Source: Escherichia coli
Lineage (GTDB): Bacteria > Pseudomonadota > Gammaproteobacteria > Enterobacterales > Enterobacteriaceae
Length of the DNA stretch: 64,000 nucleotides
Strand: one strand, 5' to 3'
Assembly: GCF_029227855.1 (NCBI RefSeq)
Contig: NZ_CP074356.1
Within the stretch, counting starts at the first letter, position 1; the number at the start of each line of letters is the position of its first letter. The translations under genes were made by a program, and so were the position numbers. The notes below the pieces were generated by a model that was not told the DNA's origin, made no database searches, and saw only the letters and a program-made list of their open reading frames with translations. This document shows positions 29,894-50,577 of the stretch, one piece after another.

Positions 29894-30676
29894 ATGCGCA
29901 CAAGCGACGTTACGCAACTGATGGATCTGGCGCTGGGGCTGTGGTTTCCCTTCGTGCGCATTATGGCGTTTCTGCGCTATGTGCCGGTGCTGGATAACAG
30001 CGCCCTGACCGTGCGCGTGCGGATTATTTTGTCGCTGGCGCTGGCAATCATCATCACGCCGTTGATCCCCCATCCCATTCCCCACGATCTGCTTTCACTC
30101 AACAGCCTGATCCTGACGGTGGAGCAAATTTTATGGGGCATGTTGTTCGGGCTGATGTTTCAGTTTCTGTTTCTCGCGCTACAACTGGCCGGACAAATTC
30201 TCTCGTTCAATATGGGGATGAGCATGGCGGTGATGAACGACCCGAGCAGCGGCGCATCGACCACCGTGCTGGCGGAGTTAATCAACGTCTATGCGATCCT
30301 GCTGTTTTTTGCCATGGACGGGCATCTGCTGCTGGTAAGCGTGCTGTATAAGGGCTTCACCTACTGGCCGATTGGTAACGCGCTGCATCCGCAAACCCTG
30401 CGCACCATCGCGCTGGCCTTTAGCTGGGTGCTGGCGTCCGCATCACTGCTGGCGCTGCCGACCACCTTCATCATGCTGATTGTGCAGGGCTGCTTTGGCC
30501 TGCTCAACCGCATCGCGCCGCCGCTGAACCTCTTTTCGCTCGGCTTTCCCATCAACATGCTGGCGGGGCTGGTTTGCTTTGCCACCCTGCTCTACAACCT
30601 GCCGGATCACTATCTGCATCTGGCGAATTTTGTGTTGCAGCAACTCGACGCGCTGAAAGGTCACTATGGCGGATAG
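29894..30676 (+). CDS. lfiR: export apparatus protein FliR (Flag-2 LfiR)
   Basis: ORF track (29843-30676); start at ATG 29894 immediately after the fliQ stop; polytopic membrane protein. Confidence 0.85.
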   Translation: MRTSDVTQLMDLALGLWFPFVRIMAFLRYVPVLDNSALTVRVRIILSLALAIIITPLIPHPIPHDLLSLNSLILTVEQILWGMLFGLMFQFLFLALQLAGQILSFNMGMSMAVMNDPSSGASTTVLAELINVYAILLFFAMDGHLLLVSVLYKGFTYWPIGNALHPQTLRTIALAFSWVLASASLLALPTTFIMLIVQGCFGLLNRIAPPLNLFSLGFPINMLAGLVCFATLLYNLPDHYLHLANFVLQQLDALKGHYGG

Positions 30677-31805
30677 CAGCAGCGAAGAAAAAACAGAGAA
30701 ACCCTCGGCGCAAAAGCTGCGTAAAGCGCGTGAAGAGGGGCAACTGCCGCGCTCGAAGGATATGGGGCTGGCAGCGAGCCTGTTTGCAGCGTTTGTGGTG
30801 ATCTCCAGCAGTTTTCCGTGGTATGCCGATTTTGTGCGCGAGAGTTTTATCAGCGTGCATCAGTACGCGCAGGAGATTAATAACCCGCAGGTGATCGGTC
30901 AGTTTCTGCGCCACCACCTGTTAATTCTCGGCAAGTTTATCCTTACGTTGCTGCCGATGCCCGCCGCCGCGCTGCTCTCTTCGCTGGTGCCGGGCGGCTG
31001 GCTGTTTCTGCCGAAAAAAATCCTCCCGGATTTCAGCAAAATTAGCCCGTTAAAAGGCATTGGGCGTCTGTTTTCCAGTGAACATCTGGCGGAAACGGGA
31101 AAGATGACGGTGAAGTCTGCCGTGGTGCTGGTGATGCTGTGGGTAAGCCTGCGCAATAACTTTGCCGCCTTTCTCGGCCTGCAGGCGCTGCCGTTCAAAC
31201 TGGCGATGAATGACGGTTTGTCGCTCTACGCCAGCGTGATGCGCAACTTTGTCATCCTGTTTATTTTCTTTGCGCTTCTCGACGTGCCGCTGGCGAAAGC
31301 CCTGTTCACCAAAGGGCTGAAGATGACCAAACAAGAACTGAAAGAAGAGTACAAAAATCAGGAAGGCAAGCCGGAAGTGAAGGCGCGCGTGCGGCGGCTG
31401 CAACGGCAGCTGGCGATGGGGCAAATTCGCAAAGTGGTGCCAAAGGCCAACGTGGTGATCACCAACCCGACCCACTACGCCGTGGCGTTGCAGTATGACC
31501 AGTCGCGTGCCGCCGCGCCGTTTGTGGTGGCGAAAGGCACCGATGAAATCGCCCTCTATATTCGCCAGGTCGCTGCTGAAAGTCAGGTGGAAGTGGTCGA
31601 GTTCCCGCGGCTGGCGCGCTCGGTTTACTATACCACTCAGGTGAATCAGCAAATTCCTTTTCAGCTTTACCGGGCTATCGCCCACGTTCTGACCTACGTC
31701 CTGCAAATGAAACACTGGCGCGAGGGCGCACAGCCGCGCCCGGCCCTGAACAGACATATTTCCATTCCCAAAGAGGTGCTTAAACTGGATGGCGAAAACA
31801 ACTAA
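30666..31805 (+). CDS. lfhB: export apparatus protein FlhB (Flag-2 LfhB)
   Basis: ORF track, 379 aa; conserved NPTH autocleavage motif (…VVITNPTHYAVAL…). Confidence 0.9.
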   Translation: MADSSSEEKTEKPSAQKLRKAREEGQLPRSKDMGLAASLFAAFVVISSSFPWYADFVRESFISVHQYAQEINNPQVIGQFLRHHLLILGKFILTLLPMPAAALLSSLVPGGWLFLPKKILPDFSKISPLKGIGRLFSSEHLAETGKMTVKSAVVLVMLWVSLRNNFAAFLGLQALPFKLAMNDGLSLYASVMRNFVILFIFFALLDVPLAKALFTKGLKMTKQELKEEYKNQEGKPEVKARVRRLQRQLAMGQIRKVVPKANVVITNPTHYAVALQYDQSRAAAPFVVAKGTDEIALYIRQVAAESQVEVVEFPRLARSVYYTTQVNQQIPFQLYRAIAHVLTYVLQMKHWREGAQPRPALNRHISIPKEVLKLDGENN

Positions 31806-33882
31806 ATCGTTCCTCGCGCTGCTGCGCGGCGGCAATCTCGGCGTGCCGCTGGTCATTCTATGCATTCTGGCAATGGTTATTCTGCCGCTGCCGCCTGCGC
31901 TGCTGGATATTCTGTTCACCTTCAACATTGTGCTGGCGGTGATGGTGCTGCTGGTGGCGGTGTCAGCGAAAAGGCCGCTGGAATTCAGCCTGTTCCCGAC
32001 CATTTTGCTGATCACCACCTTAATGCGCCTGACGCTCAACGTTGCTTCTACGCGCGTGGTGTTGCTGCACGGGCATCTCGGCGCGGGCGCGGCGGGTAAG
32101 GTGATTGAGTCATTTGGTCAGGTGGTGATTGGCGGCAACTTTGTCGTCGGCTTCGTGGTGTTTATCATCCTGATGATCATCAACTTTATCGTCGTCACCA
32201 AAGGGGCCGAGCGTATTTCCGAGGTTTCTGCCCGCTTTACCTTAGACGCGATGCCTGGCAAACAGATGGCGATTGACGCCGATCTTAACGCCGGGTTGAT
32301 CAACCAGGCGCAGGCGCAAACCCGGCGCAAAGATGTTGCCAGCGAGGCCGATTTCTACGGCGCGATGGACGGGGCATCGAAGTTTGTGCGCGGGGATGCC
32401 ATCGCCGGGATGATGATTCTGGCGATCAACCTGATCGGCGGCGTCTGTATCGGGATCTTCAAATACAACCTGAGCGCCGACGCCGCCTTCCAGCAGTATG
32501 TACTGATGACCATCGGCGACGGGCTGGTGGCGCAGATCCCTTCTCTGCTGCTCTCCACCGCAGCGGCGATTATCGTCACCCGCGTCAGCGACAACGGCGA
32601 TATCGCCCATGATGTGCGCCACCAGCTGCTGGCAAGCCCGTCGGTGCTCTACACCGCCACCGGGATCATGTTTGTGCTGGCGGTTGTGCCGGGGATGCCG
32701 CATCTGCCGTTTTTGCTGTTCAGCGCCCTGCTTGGTTTTACCGGCTGGCGGATGAGCAAACGCCCGCAGGTGGCGGAGGCGGAAGAGAAAAGCCTCGAAA
32801 CACTGACCCGAACCATCACCGAAACCAGCGAGCAACAGGTCAGTTGGGAAACTATTCCGCTGATCGAGCCCATCAGCTTAAGCCTCGGCTACAAGCTGGT
32901 GGCGCTGGTGGACAAAGCACAGGGTAACCCGCTCACCCAGCGGATTCGCGGCGTGCGGCAGGTGATTTCTGACGGCAACGGCGTGCTGCTGCCGGAGATC
33001 CGCATTCGGGAAAACTTCCGCCTCAAGCCCAGCCAGTACGCCATTTTCATCAATGGCATTAAGGCTGATGAAGCGGATATTCCGGCGGATAAACTGATGG
33101 CCCTGCCCTCCAGCGAAACCTACGGCGAGATTGACGGCGTGCTGGGGAACGACCCGGCGTACGGGATGCCGGTGACCTGGATCCAGCCCGCGCAGAAAGC
33201 GAAGGCGCTGAATATGGGGTATCAGGTGATCGACAGCGCCAGCGTGATTGCCACCCATGTGAACAAGATTGTCCGCAGCTATATTCCTGATTTGTTTAAC
33301 TATGATGACATCACGCAGTTGCATAACCGTTTGTCGTCGATGGCACCGCGCCTGGCGGAAGATTTGAGCGCGGCGCTCAATTACAGCCAATTGCTGAAAG
33401 TGTACCGGGCGCTGCTGACCGAAGGCGTTTCCCTGCGCGATATTGTCACCATCGCCACCGTGCTGGTCGCCAGTAGTGCGGTGACCAAAGATCATATTCT
33501 GCTGGCGGCAGATGTGCGCCTGGCGCTGAGGCGCAGCATTACCCATCCGTTCGTTCGCAAGCAGGAGCTGACGGTGTATACGCTGAATAATGAGCTGGAA
33601 AATCTGCTGACCAACGTAGTGAATCAAGCGCAACAGGCCGGCAAAGTGATGCTCGACAGTGTGCCGGTGGACCCGAATATGCTTAACCAGTTCCAGAGCA
33701 CGATGCCGCAGGTAAAAGAGCAGATGAAAGCGGCGGGGAAAGACCCGGTGCTGCTGGTGCCGCCGCAACTGCATCCATTGCTGGCGCGCTATGCAAGGTT
33801 GTTTGCGCCGGGGCTGCATGTGCTGTCGTATAACGAAGTGCCGGATGAGCTGGAGTTGAAGATTATGGGGGCGCTGAGTTGA
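31789..33882 (+). CDS. lfhA: export apparatus protein FlhA (Flag-2 LfhA), full length
   Basis: ORF track, 697 aa; FlhA family N-terminal TM region and cytoplasmic domain. Confidence 0.9.
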   Translation: MAKTTKSFLALLRGGNLGVPLVILCILAMVILPLPPALLDILFTFNIVLAVMVLLVAVSAKRPLEFSLFPTILLITTLMRLTLNVASTRVVLLHGHLGAGAAGKVIESFGQVVIGGNFVVGFVVFIILMIINFIVVTKGAERISEVSARFTLDAMPGKQMAIDADLNAGLINQAQAQTRRKDVASEADFYGAMDGASKFVRGDAIAGMMILAINLIGGVCIGIFKYNLSADAAFQQYVLMTIGDGLVAQIPSLLLSTAAAIIVTRVSDNGDIAHDVRHQLLASPSVLYTATGIMFVLAVVPGMPHLPFLLFSALLGFTGWRMSKRPQVAEAEEKSLETLTRTITETSEQQVSWETIPLIEPISLSLGYKLVALVDKAQGNPLTQRIRGVRQVISDGNGVLLPEIRIRENFRLKPSQYAIFINGIKADEADIPADKLMALPSSETYGEIDGVLGNDPAYGMPVTWIQPAQKAKALNMGYQVIDSASVIATHVNKIVRSYIPDLFNYDDITQLHNRLSSMAPRLAEDLSAALNYSQLLKVYRALLTEGVSLRDIVTIATVLVASSAVTKDHILLAADVRLALRRSITHPFVRKQELTVYTLNNELENLLTNVVNQAQQAGKVMLDSVPVDPNMLNQFQSTMPQVKEQMKAAGKDPVLLVPPQLHPLLARYARLFAPGLHVLSYNEVPDELELKIMGALS

Positions 33883-33918
33883 TGCCTTTTAAGAAACACA
33901 ATACGATGACATCAATTT

Positions 33919-34314
33919 ATGACGTCAGGGATTGATAAGATGATGAAAACGCGTTTATTAATATCTCAAGCATCGAACATTATCACCATTAAAGGTCAAC
34001 CAGCCGCAGTGACATTTGAAGCCGATATCAACGCATTTCGCGGCAAATTTCTCAATGTAAATGGTTATTGCGACTTTGTAGCGACAAGCATTGAGGCGTT
34101 ATACCGGGAAGGTGAAAGTGCGCTGGATGAGTGGATGGCGGATTGTGAAGAGGACGGCATTGCCCCTTTTCGTGAAGAAGAGCAAAAACGCCTGACGCTT
34201 CGTGTTCCTCATCACATCGATTCACGACTGACCATTGTCGCCAGACAACATTCCATTTCAAAAAATCAGCTCATTGTTGATGTATTAGAACGTGAGTTTT
34301 CATCCCAGATGTAA
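33919..34314 (+). CDS. HicB-like/ribbon-helix-helix small protein (orphan antitoxin-like), 131 aa
   Basis: ORF track; C-terminal ...RLTLRVPHHIDSRLTIVARQHSISKNQLIVDVLERE resembles RHH (CopG/Arc) DNA-binding motifs fused to a HicB-like fold; no HicA-like partner seen nearby. Confidence 0.45.
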   Translation: MTSGIDKMMKTRLLISQASNIITIKGQPAAVTFEADINAFRGKFLNVNGYCDFVATSIEALYREGESALDEWMADCEEDGIAPFREEEQKRLTLRVPHHIDSRLTIVARQHSISKNQLIVDVLEREFSSQM

Positions 34315-34319
34315 ACAGG

Positions 34320-34348
34320 TCGGATGCCGTGTGGCATCCGATTTTTTT
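34320..34348 (+). terminator. Rho-independent terminator
   Basis: Hairpin tcggatgcc-gtgt-ggcatccga followed by ttttttt directly after the 131-aa ORF stop. Confidence 0.8.
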
Positions 34349-34370
34349 CCTGATCGTCAGTATTCTCCGT

Positions 34371-35129
34371 TTACAAAATCGTCTCTTCCGTCAAAATCCT
34401 GCGCGCGCCTAAAAAATGATCCTGCCAGAAAGGCTCAGCTAACCGACTTACCCGAATGGTTTCCCCCGTGCGCGGCGACTCGATAAACTGACCGTCTCCC
34501 AGATACACGCCCATATGATCGGCTATCTCGCGGCTGTGGATATGGAAAAACAGCAAATCTCCCCGGCGCAGGTCGTTGTTCGCCACAATCGTTGCCCGAT
34601 GGTAGTGATACATCTCATTAGCCGTACGCGGGAGCTTCGCCTCGAGGATCTTGTTGTAGGCATAAAAAACCAACCCGCTACAGTCGAAGCCTTGATCAGG
34701 CCGCGTGCCGCCCCAGACGTAAGGTTTGCCAAGCTGCTGCTCCAGGCGGTGAATCGCCACTTCGGTGATGTTGTGTAGATGGTCGCTGCTTAAGAAATGG
34801 TTGTTCTCCGCCAGCGCCTGCCAGCGTCTGTCACTCGCCTTGAGCGGCGCAGGAAACCATTCTGGATGCTGTTTTATCTGTTCGCGGTTGTGCTGGCGCA
34901 GCGCCTTTCTGCTTTCGGCATTGCCTTCCACAATGTAGCTGGCCTGCTTTTTCAGATGGGTTTGGTACTGTTTTAATAAACGCGCCCGGTTTTGCATCCG
35001 CTGGCGGGCGGCGTAGCTGAAAGAGATATGTGATGTGGTGGCGCTGGCGAGTAAAGGGAGCAAAACGCATAACGAAAACACGCCTGGATGCAGAAATCTG
35101 CCGTGAAAGAACGAAGACATGAAGGACAT
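34371..35129 (-). CDS. yafL: NlpC/P60-family peptidase YafL
   Basis: ORF track, 252 aa; signal peptide; NlpC/P60 catalytic region with Cys motif ...GFDCSGLVFYAY... Confidence 0.8.
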   Translation of the reverse strand: MSFMSSFFHGRFLHPGVFSLCVLLPLLASATTSHISFSYAARQRMQNRARLLKQYQTHLKKQASYIVEGNAESRKALRQHNREQIKQHPEWFPAPLKASDRRWQALAENNHFLSSDHLHNITEVAIHRLEQQLGKPYVWGGTRPDQGFDCSGLVFYAYNKILEAKLPRTANEMYHYHRATIVANNDLRRGDLLFFHIHSREIADHMGVYLGDGQFIESPRTGETIRVSRLAEPFWQDHFLGARRILTEETIL

Positions 35130-35420
35130 AAACTAGCTGAATGAAGGAGAGAATTTTAAAAGGTTGGGGGAGTAAACGGGATTATTAATTGCTTATTTGC
35201 ATATTAGTTACGAGGTTTCATAATCTTAGGAAATAAGTGATACATGCGCTTTTCGGACTAATGAAAACTGCCCCTGTGCTAAATTTGTAAACCCTGCGCC
35301 GACAGGCTTGCGTAAAACTCTTTTGGTGATAATGTGAGCCTTCCAAATCCAGACTATTCCGATTTGGGATCCATTTTGCCGTCCTGGCGTGTGTAACCGT
35401 TTTATCAAGGAATAAGCAGT

Positions 35421-36161
35421 ATGCGTAAAATCGCATTAATTCTTGCGATGTTGTTGATCCCGTGCGTTTCGTTTGCCGGTTTGCTGGGCAGCAGTAGCTC
35501 AACCACGCCAGTGAGCAAAGAGTATAAGCAGCAGTTGATGGGATCCCCTGTCTACATCCAGATCTTCAAGGAAGAACGTACGCTCGATCTCTACGTCAAA
35601 ATGGGCGAGCAATATCAGCTGCTCGACAGTTATAAAATCTGTAAATATTCCGGCGGCTTAGGGCCAAAACAGCGTCAGGGCGATTTCAAAAGCCCGGAAG
35701 GGTTTTATAGCGTCCAGCGTAATCAGTTAAAACCAGACAGCCGTTACTACAAAGCAATTAATATTGGATTCCCCAATGCCTATGACCGTGCGCATGGTTA
35801 TGAAGGGAAATACCTGATGATCCACGGCGATTGTGTTTCCATCGGCTGCTACGCGATGACCAATCAGGGTATTGATGAGATCTTCCAGTTCGTTACTGGT
35901 GCGCTGGTTTTTGGTCAGCCGAGCGTGCAAGTGAGTATTTACCCGTTCCGCATGACCGACGCCAATATGAAGCGCCATAAATATTCCAACTTTAAGGACT
36001 TCTGGGAGCAGCTGAAGCCAGGTTACGACTACTTTGAGCAAACCCGTAAGCCACCGACCGTTTCTGTGGTCAATGGTCGTTACGTGGTCAGCAAGCCGTT
36101 AAGCCACGAAGTTGTGCAGCCACAGCTGGCATCAAACTACACGCTCCCCGAGGCAAAATAA
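35421..36161 (+). CDS. yafK: L,D-transpeptidase-family periplasmic protein YafK
   Basis: ORF track, 246 aa, [20 protein letters not shown]...; YkuD-like catalytic region (…[14 protein letters not shown]…). Confidence 0.9.
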
Positions 36162-36899
36162 GCGCCATTCGCCTGGCATAATCTTTTGCCAGGTTTCATT
36201 GCCCGTCAGCGGCTGTGTTGCAATCACCGTGACCACATCATTCGGTGTGGTCTGCGAGCTGAAGTCGATTTCCACATCCTGATCCAGCAACGTTGCCACG
36301 CCAAACGGCGCACGACGGGTGATCCAGTGTAAATTAGTCGAGCAATACGCCATTACATAGCGCCCGTCAGAAAGCAGCATGTTGAAAACGCCCTTCTGCC
36401 GCAGTTCATCCGCCAGTGAGGCGATATATTTAAACACTGCCGCCATGTTGCCCGGTGTGCGCGGGTAACGCTGCGTTAATTTATGCAGGAGCCAGCAGAA
36501 GGCTTTTTCGCTGTCGGTTTCACCGACCGGGCGGAAGTTGCCGGTTTCCAGTGATTTATAGCCCGTCAGTTGCCCATTATGGGCATAAGTCCAGTTACGC
36601 CCCCATAACTCGCGGGTAAACGGGTGAGTATTTTCCAGCGCCACCTCGCCCCGATTCGCCTGGCGAATATGAGCCACCACCGAACAGGATTTTATCGGGT
36701 AGTCCTGGACAAGTTTGGCGATGGGGGAATTAAAGCTGGGTTGCGGATCTTTAAATGTGCGACAGCCTTTACCTTCGTAAAAGGTAATGCCCCAGCCATC
36801 TTTATGTGGCCCGGTTCCACCACCACGCTGTACAAGTCCGGTGAAACTAAAGCAGATATCGGTAGGGACGTTGGCGCTCATCCCGAGCAATTCGCACAT
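36132..36899 (-). CDS. yafJ: class II glutamine amidotransferase YafJ
   Basis: ORF track (36132-36914); start set at MCELLGM (N-terminal Cys nucleophile after Met); 3' end overlaps yafK convergently. Confidence 0.85.
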
Positions 36900-41800: not shown

Positions 41801-42043
41801 TCAGAAGTGACCGTCAAGGCGGTCACCGAACTCGATAATAAAGCGACTCATCCCTATCCGCCAGTCCTGAAGTGGCATCGTCCATTTTTGCGACGCTGAC
41901 TGGAAAGCCAGCCACACCACTTTTTTCACCGACTCATCTGTCGGGAACACTTTCCGTTTCTTTATCGCATGTGTGATGATGCTATTCAGCGATTCGATTG
42001 CGTTAGTGGTGTAGATAACCTTGCGGATCGCCTCCGGGTACAC
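41801..42043 (-). pseudogene. C-terminal fragment of an IS256-family (Mutator-type) transposase
   Basis: ORF track 80 aa ...YTTNAIESLNSIITHAIKKRKVFPTDESVKKVVWLAFQSASQKWTMPLQDWR... matches the conserved C-terminus of IS256-family transposases; the N-terminal ~300 aa are absent. Confidence 0.6.
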
Positions 42044-42120
42044 GAAGAATGTGGCAACATTCGGCCAGTTTGCCCGCCAGCTGCGACTTATCTGCGGGTA
42101 CCGTGCATCCCATTCCTTCC

Positions 42121-42143
42121 CAGGGAAAGATTACGAAAGCCCG
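42121..42143. repeat. 23-bp direct repeat, right copy
   Basis: cagggaaagattacgaaagcccg. Confidence 0.6.
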
Positions 42144-43263
42144 CTCCCCGCAAGGACTGACGCCAGATAGTTTCTGTCCATGGCTGCTTTTCGCATCTTA
42201 CGTCTTAACCCTGCCTTGAATACCTTATCATTCGTCAAAATATTAATAGCGATGTGCCGTATCCCTGAAAATAATTCTGCTGCATTTCCTCTTCTTATTT
42301 TGCAGTCGTCTTCATTCATTACCACGTCCAGACGCCAGTGCAGCTTATTCTCCACGTGCCAGTGGTTTCGGATTGCTGTGGCGAACTTCTCTGCGGTTAA
42401 ATCAGCAGAACTAATATAATATCTGACCGCCATTTCTGGCTCTTTCTTTTGTTCTGCTATTATTGACCGAAAGGAGACTGCCACGCATAATTTCTTCAGA
42501 CCTTTCCATTCAAACGTGAAATCAATAAGTTCATCAGGGACATCGCAAACAATGTGAAGACGGATTTCTTCTCTGCCGTGACTCTTTTCACTCATTGCGT
42601 AACTGTCATGCTCTGGATTATTTAATTCTTTCAGCGGAAATTCTCGAAGGCTTTATTTAGCCGCCCCTGGTTTCCTTTTACAGCGAATAAATAATCACCT
42701 CCCTGTTTTTGTATCTTCTCTGCAATATCTTTCTGGCAACCCATCGCATCAGTTGTGATGATTTTTCCTTTAATATCCAGCATGTTAAGAAGTTCTGGGA
42801 TAGCTGTAATTTCATTGGATTTCTCATCCGTCCTGATCTGTCCGATGACCAGACTGTGCATTGTTGAGAACGCACTAATGACATGAATCGCTCCCTTGCG
42901 GCGACTCTTGTCATAAGAATGCCGGAGTGTTTTTCCATCAATTGCGATGACGTCTTTATCATCTGAAGTATGGCAATCTCGCATCCAGTTAATAAAGCAC
43001 TCGTGAAATTTTGCAGGACTGATACAGGATACAACTCTGGCGATGGTATCGTGAACAGGAATACCATTTTAAAAATCACCGTATTGTTTTAAAAAATCGA
43101 GATGTGTTTCCCCAAAATCCTCTATATCTTCCCAACCTTCCGCACCCGAAATAACAGCACAAATAGTCAACAGTAGAATATCCGATAATTTATGTTCCAC
43201 TTTCCAGGCTTGTCTGTAATCGGGGATAATAGAAATATGCCCCATCAATTTTTTAAGTTCTAT
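42131..43263 (-). mobile_element. ISAs1-family (H-repeat) transposase gene, inactivated
   Basis: Track ORFs 42631-42984 and 42131-42595 are consecutive parts of an ISAs1/H-rpt transposase in different frames; hand translation of 43263-42985 gives the N-terminus with ATA in place of the first ATG (an in-frame Met codon remains at 43245-43243), and an in-frame TAA at 43071-43069. Confidence 0.8.
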
Positions 43264-43483
43264 TTTGTTCTCCTTAATTATGTAAGGAGTATTTGATCAT
43301 GTATAAGCAATAAAAAACAGCTTTAGGTAATGAGGAATATCTCAATTTTTAAGCATAAAATGCGAATTATTTAGTACAAAAAAGCAGCGTTACGTGATCT
43401 TTCCCTGCACTTCACCCTAACTTTAATTTAACTTCAAGAAGTATTAAGGCCTCAATAGCGAACTTAATACTTCTTAAAGAATA

Positions 43484-43861
43484 TCACTCCTGACCAAAAT
43501 CTTTCCACACTAATGCATGAGACTTTGATTTATCACCCAAAAATTTACTTACATCTTTCCAAAGTAAAGAATTGCTATCGGTCGCAGTGACTATTGCCTC
43601 TATAAGCCCTGTAGCTACAACTGTGGCCAATTCATCATCAATCGAGACCATACCATCTTCGACATGTTTAAATATTTTTTCTCTTTCAATATCACCCATT
43701 TCATAAAAATTTTTTACAATCGTTTTTCCAATCTGAGAGAACAACATAACCACCGGTGGAGTTTCTGGATGCCAGTATTCATTAGCTAATGAGACTGTCT
43801 CAGACAAAACAGTGGAAAACGATGCCATTTTTTCTATATAATTAGCAATATATTGGTTCAT
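43484..43861 (-). CDS. putative immunity protein for the Rhs C-terminal toxin, 125 aa
   Basis: ORF track; small AT-rich ORF whose ATG overlaps the rhs stop codon; classic effector-immunity arrangement; family unknown. Confidence 0.5.
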   Translation of the reverse strand: MNQYIANYIEKMASFSTVLSETVSLANEYWHPETPPVVMLFSQIGKTIVKNFYEMGDIEREKIFKHVEDGMVSIDDELATVVATGLIEAIVTATDSNSLLWKDVSKFLGDKSKSHALVWKDFGQE

Positions 43862-46800
43862 TACTTGCCTCCCAAAGCATTCTGTAAATCCTGAAGAACG
43901 TTTTCTGCTGCTGCTCGATCCCCTGGAGATGCTGTTGGATTCTTATCCAACCAATCCTGTAAAGCCCTTGTATAATCCTGTGCTTTCAATACATGTCCTC
44001 TACCACCAACTTTTTCACCTGTGGCCAATTCATAACGAACAGCATCTGCTGTGCTTCCACTTCCTACTTTTGCATTTGGCCGATAAAGATCGTCTATAAT
44101 ATTTTTCAAATTTGAATCTGTAACGTCAGGTTTTCCCATCTTCTGTCGCAATTCATCTTTATACCGTTCATGCTGCATACGATCTCTTGCGCTATTCTCA
44201 TCTTCTGGTCCCCATCCTCCCGGGCTTCCCGTACTGCCACCACCCAGGCAGTTCTTCTCTTCCTCCGTCAAATCCTTCCCGACATTTGGATTCTCTTTTG
44301 ATGAATCATCATTTCCAAACACGCTGGAAAAAGCACCATAGGGATCTCGCCAGAATTCCATTTGACTTTGTGCATTTAATAATTCGGCTTCACCCTGCAT
44401 CTCCATACTTTTCTCAATCGCGTCCCCAACAGCCTCGCGATTGTTGTATATTATTATACCACCACCAATAACCACCGTACCGACTGCCGCACCGACTAAC
44501 ATCCCCGGAGGGCCTCCTACCGAACCGATCTCTGTACCTACTTCAGAACCAGTTCCCATGGCAGTTAATGCTCCTGCGCCCAACGCCGCACTTAATCCCA
44601 GCGGATCCAGCCGTTGCACCGGGTTCAGTGGATACGCATACAGGTTCCATCCCCCCTTCAGCCCAATCGGATCCTGGGTGATATACCTCCCCTGTAGCGG
44701 GTCATAGTACCGGTGACGGTTGTAGTACAGCCCCGACTCCTCATCATACTGCTGCCCCGGCAGACGGAGTGACTGTTGAAGGTGCTGCGTGCTTTCCTCT
44801 CCCAGCAGGTTTCCCCACTCGTCATACTCCCCGCGCCACGCCGTTTCCCCTTCCGGGCTGATAAGCGCCTGCGGCAGCCCACGGTGGTCACAGTGGTAAA
44901 GATGAAGTTTCCTCTCCGGGATGTATTCCGCCTCCAGTTGCGCCGCCATCTGTTCCGCCGTCAACCCACACTGTGCAAGCCACTGCTGGCTTTCTTCACT
45001 CACGCTGCCCTGCCGCAGTTCCCGCTCCAGCCTCCCCAGCATCACCGCCAGCTCCGCCGGTAGCGTCACACCCGTGTCCTCCTGCAACACCTCCGCCAGG
45101 CTACGGTGCCGCGCCTTCGCCTGTTCGCCATTCTCTGTTTCGATTCTCAGGAGCGGCGTGAAGCTCCCCGGCTGGTATACCGTCTGGATACGCGTGGTGT
45201 CGGTCTGTACCGTCGTCAGCCTGTCGCCGTCCCACCCGTACCAGGTCACCTCCGGTTTACGCGACAGCGACATCCACCCCGTCAGGTCACGCTCCCGCCG
45301 CCACACCCGTTTTCCCGTCCGGCGGCCCAGCGGGTCATAGAGGTAGCGGCTCTCCACCTGTGGCTCGCCGTGCTGTATCCGCGTGTAGAACACCAGGCGG
45401 TGCTGGCTGTCGTAATGGTAGTGGTGCGTCCGCTCGTCGTGCATCCGTATCACCCCTTCCGGGATACGGTCCGTCTTCTCCGCCAGCCTGCCGTATTCAT
45501 CGTAGCGGTAGACATAGTGCGCATCTTCCGTGATGCGGTTATCCGGCCACGCCGTGAGGGTGCTGTCCGGGTGCAGTTCCGGGTCCGGCAGCCGGTTTCC
45601 TGCCGGGTCCGTCGCATACGGGATATCAATGTCCAGGTTCGCTGCCGTGGTGTGGACGCCCGTCAGCCTTCCCGTGTCGCTGTAACGGTACTCCCGGCTC
45701 TCCTGCGGGCCGCTGATGCGAATTAGCTGTCCGTTGTCGTTCCAGTCGTAGTCACGGTCAAGCTGCGGAAGGTTCAGGTGCCTGCTCCGGAGCTGGCCGC
45801 TGGTATTCCAGGCGGTGGCAAGCTCATATGCCTCCCCGCCGAAGCTGCGGGCCGTCTCACGGTGCAGCCGGTCCCGCGTGTACTCGACCAGTGGCGTACC
45901 ACCCAGCTTCATTCCCGCAAGATAACCGCTGCCATACGTCAGCCACTCCACCGGCGGCAGACCGTCCAGCTCCTGACGGGTCGCCAGCCCCTGTTCGCTG
46001 TACGCGTGCTTCGTCTCATGCTCCCACAGCATCTCCCCCGTCTCCGGGTTCTCCACCGTCTGCCGTTCGCCCGTCAGGCGGCCTTTATCGTCGTGGCCGT
46101 AGTGGACCGCCACACGGTGGCCTTCGCTGATATGGCTGATTTCTGTCAGCCAGCCGTGCTCATCATACTGCCACTGCTCCGCCGGGTCGCCGTTCACCGT
46201 CCGGTGCGTGATGCGGTCCGACGCATCGTAATGCCAGAGGGTGATAAGTCCCTCGTCTTCACTGTGGACAAGCTGCCCTGTGGCGCTGTACCGGTAACGC
46301 TGCGTCCTGCCGTCAAAGCCGCGCTGCTCCGTCAGCCTGTCCACCGGGTCATACCGGAACGTGGACTGGCTGCCGTTCTCGTTGGTCAGCACGGTGATGC
46401 GCCCGGCAGCGTCATACCCCATGCTGCGCGTCAGACCGCCTTCCGTCACACTCACCGGACGCCCGCGTTTATCATATTCGATGGTGCTGCGTTTACCGTC
46501 CGGTGATATCGTTGCTGTCAGGTCGCCTGCGGCGCTGTACTCATAACGGGTTTCACGCCCCTGCGCATCCTTCTGACTGACCAGTTGGCCTCGCGGGTTA
46601 TAACTGCTGTAAGTGCTGATGCCTTCCTCCCGGTGAACGGCGATTTGTTGACCGTACCGGTCATACTCATACCGCGTCATGTACCCCGAGCAGTCCGTGA
46701 AGGCCCGAAGCTGACCGTACCGGTTTCGCGTTATTCTCCGCGTCACCCCGATTCCGTCTTCCACCGCGCCGGGCAGGCTACTGCGGGGGGAGTCATAAAA

Positions 46801-48360
46801 CCAGCGCGTAATGTTACCGTTGCGCGAGATCTCTTCTGCCAGTCGGCCCTGACGGTCATATTTCCGGCTGCTGCGTAAACCATCCGGATATGTCACTGAA
46901 GTCAGTTGCAACTGGCTGTTGTAACCATACCGTACCGTCCTGCCGTCCGGCAGTATCACTGAAGTCAGCTTTCCAGACGCCATATGCAGCCGGTACTCCG
47001 TCCGCCGTCCTGCCGCATCCGTCTGCGCCTTCAGCCTCCCCGCCTCATCATACTCGCTGCGGGTGATGCTCCCGTCGGCATGCTCCTTCTTCACCACACG
47101 CTTCAGGCCACCCCCGCCTTCCGTGTACAGCACCTCCCGCCGGTTCAGGCTGTCCGTGATGGTCACACGGTCCTGCCCGTACTCAAAGCGGTAGTCCAGC
47201 CCCTCCGGGTTGACCTGCTCCGTCACCCGCCCGGTATCATCATACCGGTAGCGGCTCTCCGGCCTCCCTGCATAATGGTGCGCCACCATCCGCCCGGCGT
47301 GCTCCGCATCATAAGTAAACCCGCGCACCTGCGTCCCGCTGCGGTCATACACCGCCCGCAGTTCTCCGCTGGCCGTGTACGTATAGCGCGCCAGCGGCGC
47401 AGTCGGCTGTTCATCCGGGTATGCCGGGTCGTGTGTCAGCCACACCGCCTCCAGCCGGATACCGTTATCGGCACCGTATTCTGTACCGGCGGGCAGCGTA
47501 TCGGGGAAAACCTGAGAAGAGGAAACAGAACGGGGACCGGCTGGAGAAGATAAAGAAGAGGCGCGCTGTTTACGGAAGGCTTCCGCCCGCTGCGCCTGCG
47601 TGCTCAGCGCCAGGTGAAAACAGCGGCCCGCGCCGTCCGTCACCCCCGTCACCGCACCCGCCACGTCACCCTCTGCCGCCCGGTGGAAGGCCAGCGTCCG
47701 CCCGAAGCCGTCCACCACGCCCGTCAGCACCCGGTATGCGGGCGGCTCCGGCGGCAGCACCTCGTCCGCCCCCGGCACCCGCTCCGGCCAGCCGAGCACC
47801 AGCCACTGCCCGGTTGTGCTGGCAGCCATCATATAGATGTGTGGACTCAGACGGACCGCTTCCGGCAACGCCCGCCAGAGCCGCGCAAGCGGGTGGCCTT
47901 TGTGCTGTTTCAGCACCCCGCACCGCGCCAGCCAGAACGACTCGCTGCGGCTGTAGCTTATCTCGCCGGGAAACAGGGGTTCAAAGTGAATGCTCCTGCC
48001 GCCGCTGTCGTTGAGTATCAGGCCTTCATCGCGTATCTGTAAGCGGATATCGAAGGGGGCTTTCCAGCCGGGACCAAACACCCCCACCGGCGCGGGCGTC
48101 CTGGTCCGGTAGCTGCTGTAGGCGCGGAAAAGAACAAACGGCAGCGGGCCGGACAGTGCCAGGTCGGTTTCAGCAGGCAGCACCTTCGCTCCCAGCAGCG
48201 GGTTTACCGGATTGCCATATTTCGGCGTGGCTTCCCCTGTGGGACACACCGAGCAGGCCACACCGGTTGGCGCACCTATCAGCACCCCTGCTGAACCCTG
48301 CACAATATCCAGTCCCTTGCGGGTCATGTCACCCTGCCGCGCCGCCGGTTTTCCACCCAT
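43861..48360 (-). CDS. rhs: PAAR-domain Rhs (YD-repeat) polymorphic toxin, 1499 aa, with variable C-terminal toxin domain
   Basis: ORF track; N-terminal PAAR motif ([11 protein letters not shown]...), long YD-repeat core, DPLGL core-end motif at 44593-44607 followed by a ~243-aa C-terminal domain of lower GC. Confidence 0.9.
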
Positions 48361-48435
48361 GAATCAATTCCTTCTGCTTTTAATATGGTTTATCTGGTCA
48401 CTGCACCAGTTCCGTTTTAATTTTTTGCACCTGAC

Positions 48436-50577
48436 TCAAAATTGCCGCATATCCGGCATTCCGGGGGGTAAATCTTTCGGCACAGGCGCATCCGGTACAG
48501 GTTGTGTGGCACCACAGTTCCAGTTAATCACCGGCGCATCACCGTTCACATCCGACTCTCCTTCCAGATGAATGTGCGTACCATTGAGAAATATGCTTCC
48601 GTCCTTCGTCAGCACCAACCTTGCCTTACCGCAGCAGAGTTCCAGATGCTCACCGGCAGAATAAACTGCTGTTTGTCCGGTGTTTTCCTTCATCGTCTTG
48701 CCCACCGAGAAGGTGACGTTATTCCCTACATTGACGCTGTAGCCCATTCCCACCATCAGTGATTTATGCAGCCCTACCTGTGAGGACTGCAACAACGCCA
48801 CCGAGGTATTCATGATGCCGCCTACCGTCGTCTGGTAAGCCACGCCCACCGTCAGCGCACGAATGATCCCCACCTTTTCAACCTGGTTTGAACCCACTTT
48901 GACAATCTGGTTGCTGCCTACCGTTTCCACCTGGTTGACACCAACCGTCTGTATCTGATTAACGCCAATGTTCTGGATCTGGTTATTGGTAACGGTGATC
49001 GCCTGGTTGTTACCTATTTTTTCGGCATGGTTGTTTATCACATCAGTGGTACGGTTATTCAGCACCTCGGTGTTCATGTTCTTCTGCGCGTGGATGTAGA
49101 CCTGTTCTTTCCCTGTCGCATCGTCAAACTTCAGTTCATTAAACCCGCTGCCCTTATAGGTTTTTGAACGAATGGTCATCTGCGTCTTTGTTCCCGGCAG
49201 GCTGCCGGGGGTGCGGTTTTCCTGGTGGTAGGTGCGCCCCATAATAATCGGCTGGTCCGGATCGCCGTTGAGGAAGTCCACAATGACTTCCTGACCCACA
49301 CGCGGTATCGCCAGGTTGCCAAAGCCGGTGCCTGCCCACGCCTGTGCCACACGGATCCAGCATGAACTGTCCTGGTTTGACGGGTTATAGCGGTCCCAGT
49401 TAAATTTCACCCGCACGCGGCCATGTTCATCACAGAAGATTTCTTCTCCTGCCGGTCCCGTCACGACGGCGCTCTGCGGGCCGTCCACCAGCGGTTTCAG
49501 CAACGGCTGTGGCCGCCATGTTCTGTCTGCCGGTATTACCGCAAAGTGGTTATTCAGCGTGGTACCTGAACCCCTGCGTCCCGGCACCGCCTGCGGCTGC
49601 TCGCCGTGCAGTTCACTTGCCACCACCTGCCATTCCCGGTTCAGGTTCGCCTGCGGATGCCCCGTCAGCGCAATTCGCCGTCCCGGCCATATCTCCGGCG
49701 AACGGCTTGTTCCGCGCGCCACTTCTGCGTTGTTTCGCCAGCCATCCATCTGCCAGCAGGCAAAGTTCTGCCCGTGGGCACCCTTGAAACGTCCGGGGTA
49801 GTCATACACTTCATACTGTGTGCGCTGGTAATCCTGGTGCTGGCCTTCCTGATCAAAACGCCCTGCCCAGCCGGGTCGTTTAAAGGTGTAGTCTTTGGTC
49901 ACCACGGAAGATGGGCGGATTTGTGCGCTGTAGAGGAACTGGCTGATGCATAGGGTGCTCACCTCGGTACGGGTGTTCGGATTCCAGGGGATCTCAAAGG
50001 ACTCCGGCAGATAACGCACGGTGTCGCACAGGACCAGGCTCTGGTCGGTACTTTTTTGCGCGTGCTCCTCATAAAAGAAGATGCCTTCCTCCGCCGCCAT
50101 CCGGCACAGGAAATCGTAATCGGTTTCGCCGTACTGGACACAAAACTCACGGGAAGGATGCGGCTCGCTGAACAGCGGACTCCACTCGGTCACCCCGTTT
50201 TCTTTCAGGATCGTCGCGAGTATGCTTTCGATGTCCTCATTCTGGAAGATACGGAAGTTCTGGCGCAGCCCTGTGCGCCACAGCGGTGGGCACACCTTCA
50301 TGCTGTACAGCATCTGGTTTTTGTCGTTCTCCCCCAGTTCAAACCAGGTCACCACACCTTTCACCCGGCGCTGTACGTCATCGCCCTGCCATACCGTCAG
50401 GTAGGCCATTTTGTCCAGCACCTGCGCAAATTCAAGGGAGAGAAACTGCTGGCTGACCAGAGAGAGATCGAGGGAAAAGAGCGAAGAGAGTGACTGGTTC
50501 AGATGAAAGGAGACCACCGCAAACGCGTCCGGTGGCAGGCCGTCCACTTCCAGCGTGAAACGTAATCCGGTTGACAT
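48436..50577 (-). CDS. vgrG: T6SS spike protein VgrG (TssI)
   Basis: ORF track, 713 aa; gp27/gp5-like sequence and beta-helix repeats (…VGSNQIVKVGSNQVEKVG…). Confidence 0.9.
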   Translation of the reverse strand: MSTGLRFTLEVDGLPPDAFAVVSFHLNQSLSSLFSLDLSLVSQQFLSLEFAQVLDKMAYLTVWQGDDVQRRVKGVVTWFELGENDKNQMLYSMKVCPPLWRTGLRQNFRIFQNEDIESILATILKENGVTEWSPLFSEPHPSREFCVQYGETDYDFLCRMAAEEGIFFYEEHAQKSTDQSLVLCDTVRYLPESFEIPWNPNTRTEVSTLCISQFLYSAQIRPSSVVTKDYTFKRPGWAGRFDQEGQHQDYQRTQYEVYDYPGRFKGAHGQNFACWQMDGWRNNAEVARGTSRSPEIWPGRRIALTGHPQANLNREWQVVASELHGEQPQAVPGRRGSGTTLNNHFAVIPADRTWRPQPLLKPLVDGPQSAVVTGPAGEEIFCDEHGRVRVKFNWDRYNPSNQDSSCWIRVAQAWAGTGFGNLAIPRVGQEVIVDFLNGDPDQPIIMGRTYHQENRTPGSLPGTKTQMTIRSKTYKGSGFNELKFDDATGKEQVYIHAQKNMNTEVLNNRTTDVINNHAEKIGNNQAITVTNNQIQNIGVNQIQTVGVNQVETVGSNQIVKVGSNQVEKVGIIRALTVGVAYQTTVGGIMNTSVALLQSSQVGLHKSLMVGMGYSVNVGNNVTFSVGKTMKENTGQTAVYSAGEHLELCCGKARLVLTKDGSIFLNGTHIHLEGESDVNGDAPVINWNCGATQPVPDAPVPKDLPPGMPDMRQF

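Follow-up and report, generated by a model that had tools for sequence, protein, structure and literature searches.

The yafL-yafK junction studied here, when set against the same locus in other genomes, is very probably an unoccupied and likely ancestral divergent control region without any gene of its own, in which the right-hand 140 bp would provide the promoter, leader and ribosome-binding site of dpaA (yafK, also named ldtF), the left-hand part would provide the promoter and signal-peptide codons of yafL, and a 228-bp segment has been exchanged for one of 834 bp in K-12-like lineages. The junction lies in a stretch of Escherichia coli DNA of 64,000 nucleotides that was analyzed as a whole (hereafter, the window), and the features discussed below are collected in Table 1. 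The uneven distribution of the dinJ-yafQ toxin-antitoxin pair across E. coli lineages and phylogroups is already published: every genome of the E/B1/A lineage was reported to carry the pair, which in the other lineage was confined to phylogroup F, and the pair was treated as an acquisition (PMC6896753); Fiedoruk 2015 and Ramisetty and Santhosh 2016 are cited in PMC7167474. The window shows the ordinary empty state of this locus; what this analysis adds is the precise position of the breakpoints, the swap of the YafL signal peptide that goes with the segment, the frequency of each allele, the states in outgroups and the deep conservation of the block upstream of dpaA.

Table 1. Coordinates of the features at the yafL-yafK junction of the window.
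Feature	Position	Strand	Description
yafL	34371-35129	minus	ORF list; 252 aa from first ATG; NlpC/P60 (C40) peptidase
yafL, RefSeq start	35120	minus	249 aa (annotation of JNEC-KY178, identical here)
yafL-yafK intergenic region	35130-35420		291 bp (300 bp if yafL starts as in RefSeq); gene-free
Window-type allele-specific segment	35053-35280		228 bp: first 77 bp of yafL (signal-peptide codons) and 151 bp of spacer
dpaA upstream block	35281-35420	plus	140 bp; 100% identical to K-12; conserved across Enterobacteriaceae genera
TTGTAAAC	35285-35292	plus	Columns conserved at 71-100% in 83 loci, and at 99-100% in six of the eight
Promoter-like architecture	35308-35335	plus	-35-like TTGCGT 35308-35313; 16-bp spacer; TG 35327-35328; -10-like TAATGT 35330-35335
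Imperfect inverted repeat	35343-35367	plus	CCAAATC ... GATTTGG; variable 4-nt centre
GCC...GGC	35377-35389		Conserved block
TTTATCAAGGAA	35401-35412	plus	100% conserved, before yafK ATG
Shine-Dalgarno-like AAGGAA	35407-35412	plus	8 nt before yafK ATG
yafK/dpaA (ldtF)	35421-36161	plus	ORF and RefSeq annotation

The two genes that flank the region form a divergent pair. YafL matches the Pfam family NLPC_P60 (E=3e-33), and YafK/DpaA shares 100% amino-acid identity with its K-12 counterpart (tblastn), DpaA being described as an amidase that detaches Braun's lipoprotein from peptidoglycan (PMC8263019). The genome of JNEC-KY178 is 100% identical to the window from yafL through yafK, and its RefSeq annotation places zero genes between the two. 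Mechanical ORF calling finds three frames in the gap, two antisense ones of 94 and 60 aa and a plus-strand frame of 20 aa that opens with GTG, none of which returned a Pfam match, and a search of positions 33800-36300 with the covariance models of Rfam 15 gave no match at E≤1. The 94-aa antisense frame was rejected as a gene: ATCC 25922 and two further Escherichia genomes have a stop within it, and it has no Pfam match. The 20-aa frame is likewise broken in relatives, and the view of an earlier note, that positions 35130-35420 hold no convincing ORF, is thereby upheld on the evidence of RefSeq, Pfam, Rfam and both frames.

The same note had also suggested that dinJ-yafQ lies between yafL and yafK in K-12, which would make the site variable among strains, and had proposed a comparison with K-12 and other genomes. 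That comparison was run; MG1655 has no empty junction, its annotation placing yafQ (b0225) and dinJ (b0226) exactly there. When the whole 64-kb window was searched by tblastn, the best match to K-12 DinJ had E=0.74 and was located outside the gap, and the best match to K-12 YafQ had E=1.3; blastn of the 834-bp K-12 segment against the window gave no match. The window junction is an empty site and not a member of the dinJ-yafQ family.

The gene order in MG1655 is yafJ, dpaA/yafK (b0224), yafQ (b0225), dinJ (b0226), yafL (b0227) and rayT. This locus (b0224-b0227) resembles the window in its flanking genes, in their relative orientation and in the 140 bp upstream of yafK, but it differs in holding 834 bp where the window has an unrelated segment of 228 bp; these 834 bp consist of 15 bp, yafQ, dinJ, 209 bp of spacer and 68 bp that belong to another yafL 5' end. 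Pairwise comparison places the breakpoints at 35052/35053, inside yafL codon 26, and at 35280/35281: read from the yafL side the window and K-12 agree up to 35052, and read from the yafK side they agree up to 35281, 15 bp past the stop codon of K-12 yafQ. Between these points, local alignment of the 228-bp and the 834-bp segment scored 18, where shuffles averaged 20.2 (sd 2.5), that is, no similarity above shuffles, and the gap is ~600 bp shorter in the window than in K-12. The YafL signal peptide is specific to the segment and reads MSFMSSFFHGRFLHPGVFSLCVLLPLLASA in the window and MSLPSIPSFVLSGLLLICLPFSSFASA in K-12. At the DNA level yafL is 93.6% identical between the two, compared with ~98% for each of yafK, yafJ and gmhA. 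The difference between the window and K-12 is one segment replaced by another, and neither a clean insertion nor a clean deletion. The earlier note can be refined on two points: the two forms differ by an exchange of non-homologous segments where a clean insertion might have been pictured, and the empty form is likely the ancestral one. A remnant of the cassette in the gap was considered and rejected, there being no DNA or protein similarity to the dinJ-yafQ segment by alignment against shuffles, tblastn or blastn. A scar left by a repeat or mobile element was rejected as well, the window-type segment being single-copy in E. coli genomes and the repeats within the gap being short and probably due to chance.

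Utilizing a sample of 5,426 complete E. coli genomes, the locus was located in 5,424. The window-type 228-bp segment is present in 2,084 of the 5,426, always at yafL and, apart from rare cases, in a single copy, and the K-12-type 834-bp segment with dinJ-yafQ is present in 3,340. The proposal of strain variability made in the earlier note thus holds across the species. The two counts add up to the number of genomes with the locus, a sum (as distinct from a genome-by-genome overlap) that fits mutually exclusive alleles. The identity of the window-type segment to that of the window falls into bands, with at least 99% in 100 genomes, 90-95% in 824 and 80-90% in 1,129. ATCC 25922, which we take to be of phylogroup B2, belongs to the lowest of these bands: its junction is empty like that of the window, with the same architecture and a window-type YafL signal peptide, but its allele-specific segment is 88.7% identical with an 11-bp difference in length, it is without hicB, and its lateral-flagellar flhA is truncated. 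With ~38% of complete E. coli genomes lacking dinJ-yafQ, results obtained on the K-12 system are not transferable to these genomes, because the system is absent there. The two alleles, moreover, supply YafL with different signal peptides and promoters.

The part of the gap that is shared with K-12 is conserved far beyond E. coli. The 140-bp block matches dozens of genera at 70-87% identity in blastn, with or without yafL present, and the matches all begin near gap position 150-178, within ~30 bp of the K-12 breakpoint. In the alignment the promoter-like hexamers are conserved per column, while the 16-bp spacer between them is poorly conserved, and the transcription start of dpaA is predicted near 35342. 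A consensus promoter scan returned two plus-strand sites, no more than in shuffled sequences and neither of them at the conserved blocks, and did not flag 35308-35335. Further upstream, TTGTAAAC is a possible upstream promoter element or regulator site. The inverted repeat is found in most genera as AAATCCAGA-N4-TCTGATTT and appears in the alignment as well as in the minimum-energy fold, with pair counts not above shuffles; it may represent either a leader hairpin or a DNA operator. A new structured RNA in the 140 bp gained no support: RNAalifold gave a weak covariation term (-0.49), the folding energy equals that of shuffles (z-score 0.16), and in a hand-built hairpin model 83.6% of cells were paired, compared with a mean of 82.5% in shuffles, the covariation score of the model being reached by 76 of 500 shuffles.

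On the pattern of conservation, the simplest reading is that the 140 bp constitute dpaA's own promoter, leader and ribosome-binding site. This putative promoter would agree with the RpoS dependence of a promoter fusion of K-12 ldtF (=yafK) (PMC6428754). It also qualifies a published statement according to which yafK lacks a promoter and is probably transcribed together with dinJ-yafQ (PMC5120126). In the 38% of E. coli genomes and all the other genera that are without the cassette, there is no co-directional gene upstream of yafK. A more elaborate proposal holds that the 140 bp contain, beyond a plain promoter, an undescribed cis-regulatory element, be it the near-invariant palindrome, in the role of an operator or of a leader hairpin, or else a short ORF upstream of the gene, and that selection on this element fixes where the cassette can end. 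We regard this as a rather improbable addition to the simple reading. If true, the cassette would put dpaA, an envelope-remodelling enzyme, under additional SOS-driven read-through, and would do so only in some E. coli lineages.

The likely direction of change is suggested by the outgroups, which were scanned with the DpaA protein at one genome per species, the neighboring genes being placed by tblastn. Without dinJ-yafQ between them, yafL adjoins yafK in E. albertii, Escherichia sp. E1V33 and strain SCPM-O-B-8794, in C. youngae, C. braakii, C. werkmanii and C. gillenii, and in one C. amalonaticus strain and Phytobacter massiliensis, while in most other genera yafL is absent from the position beside yafK. 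The window-type 228 bp are 75-78% identical over 215-223 bp to the loci of E. albertii and two other non-coli Escherichia. The left part of the gap found no nucleotide-level match in Citrobacter; the window-type YafL signal peptide, in contrast to the K-12 type, resembles those of both E. albertii and Citrobacter. One non-coli genome, Escherichia sp. MOD1-EC7003, carries the dinJ-yafQ cassette together with a K-12-type yafL 5' end, and here dinJ-yafQ is 98.7% identical to K-12, compared with 89% for the yafL body and 96% for yafK. An identity of the cassette above that of its flanks fits its horizontal spread, and chromosomal toxin-antitoxin systems have been described as horizontally transferred (PMC5120126). 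Judged by the outgroup states, the empty form is probably ancestral and the cassette probably spreads horizontally. Two further observations concern the C. amalonaticus S646 locus, which has an insertion of ~58 bp inside the conserved dpaA leader and in which a 48-bp stretch between yafL and yafK (L022, 3682-3729) matches the K-12 yafL-dinJ spacer at 81%; the latter match might hint at the source of the K-12-type yafL 5' region.

The presence of the cassette in MOD1-EC7003 also means that the polymorphism crosses species lines, and gains and losses by allelic exchange are not orderable for the window lineage. An ancestor of the window strain could have possessed dinJ-yafQ, the empty allele being restored later through homologous recombination with a strain lacking the pair. 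Such a reverse exchange is mechanically as feasible as the forward one, the cassette does move between lineages and even species, and the lower identity of yafL than of yafK and yafJ between the allele classes suggests recombination tracts across the locus. We nonetheless consider a secondary loss unlikely: no trace of the cassette is left, the division of the window-type segment into deeply diverged bands within E. coli suggests long residence and not a recent re-import, and the published reconstruction has dinJ-yafQ as an acquisition (PMC6896753).

Less probable still, with little to recommend it overall, is a functional small gene hidden in the gap, either a small RNA or the 20-aa GTG frame at 35334-35396 acting as an upstream ORF or encoding a small protein. 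The frame has some coding-like properties, in that the variable columns 35354, 35357, 35360, 35366, 35369 and 35372 fall on third codon positions (a three-base periodicity), many genera share an in-frame motif like SDFGSLLPSWQ, and GGTGAT stands just upstream of the GTG. In many other genera, however, stops reduce the product to 7-9 aa or indels of 1-2 nt shift the frame, while the nucleotide blocks stay conserved, and the GTG itself lies inside the putative -10 element, which would put the start codon upstream of the predicted transcript start. Neither Pfam nor Rfam contributed a match, and a small RNA is further opposed by a fold stability that shows no excess and by covariation that does not rise above shuffles. 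A simple deletion, in which dinJ-yafQ was excised from a K-12-like arrangement and left a scar, has the shorter gap in its favor and can otherwise be dismissed almost entirely, as it cannot create 228 bp that are absent from K-12, that are homologous to the corresponding sequence in E. albertii and other Escherichia and that encode a signal peptide like that of Citrobacter YafL.

Replacement of a probably ancestral empty segment by the cassette allele can be pictured as follows. The left ~150 bp of the gap and the first 26 yafL codons would form a fast-evolving yafL promoter and signal-peptide segment, and in K-12-like lineages the 834-bp segment would have taken the place of the 228 bp, bringing with it dinJ-yafQ, the promoter of that pair and another yafL 5' end. 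Both breakpoints fall at the edge of a conserved stretch, one at the yafL body and the other at the dpaA upstream block, and the cassette allele therefore most likely moves by homologous recombination; we infer that the exchange was anchored in these two conserved blocks and that the breakpoints lie at their edges because of this anchoring. The divergence of yafL relative to yafK and yafJ fits recombination tracts that extend into yafL. In the window strain dpaA would be transcribed from its own promoter only, and in K-12 read-through from the dinJ promoter may add to this. A similar arrangement is known among chromosomal type II toxin-antitoxin cassettes from ccdO157, the subject of Mine et al. 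2009 (listed in PMC7167474). This cassette reportedly lies between folA and apaH, a place taken in K-12 by a short empty spacer. Like ccdO157, dinJ-yafQ is a pair found at a conserved intergenic site in part of the E. coli lineages, the others keeping a short empty spacer there; unlike ccdO157, the dinJ-yafQ allele also swaps the promoter and the signal-peptide codons of a neighboring gene.

A second toxin-antitoxin locus lies on the other side of yafL. An orphan hicB antitoxin gene is found at 33883-34314 (RefSeq 33961-34314), between lateral-flagellar flhA and yafL, where K-12 has rayT, and its product matches Pfam HicB with E=1.6e-10. A tblastn search of the window with HicA of E. coli O111:H8 gave no match at E≤1. 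Of hicA the window retains only promoter-like DNA and the beginning of the gene, its coding region being absent. The hicAB locus of the window is thus incomplete, with hicB present and hicA deleted. E. coli O111:H8 (L085) has an intact hicA-hicB at the same site in addition to dinJ-yafQ, and 1,479 of the 5,426 E. coli genomes have a related hicB segment, for the most part 90-95% identical. At least three forms of the lfhA-yafL junction exist: one with rayT (in K-12 and other Escherichia species), one with hicB or hicAB, and one that is empty (ATCC 25922). The area around the yafL body (34371-35052) is a local hotspot of allelic exchange.

Farther out, positions 1-33882 of the window contain a complete lateral-flagella (Flag-2) cluster (lafA, flg, fli, flhB, flhA), of which K-12 keeps only the lfhA and lafU pseudogenes; flhB (30666-31805) is an intact ORF of 379 aa in the window and is annotated as frameshifted in the near-identical JNEC-KY178. 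On the yafK side, the annotation of the near-identical genome assigns to 41801-50577 frameshifted remnants of ISAs1-family transposases, followed by genes for an RHS core protein (43861-48360) and for a VgrG protein of type VI secretion.
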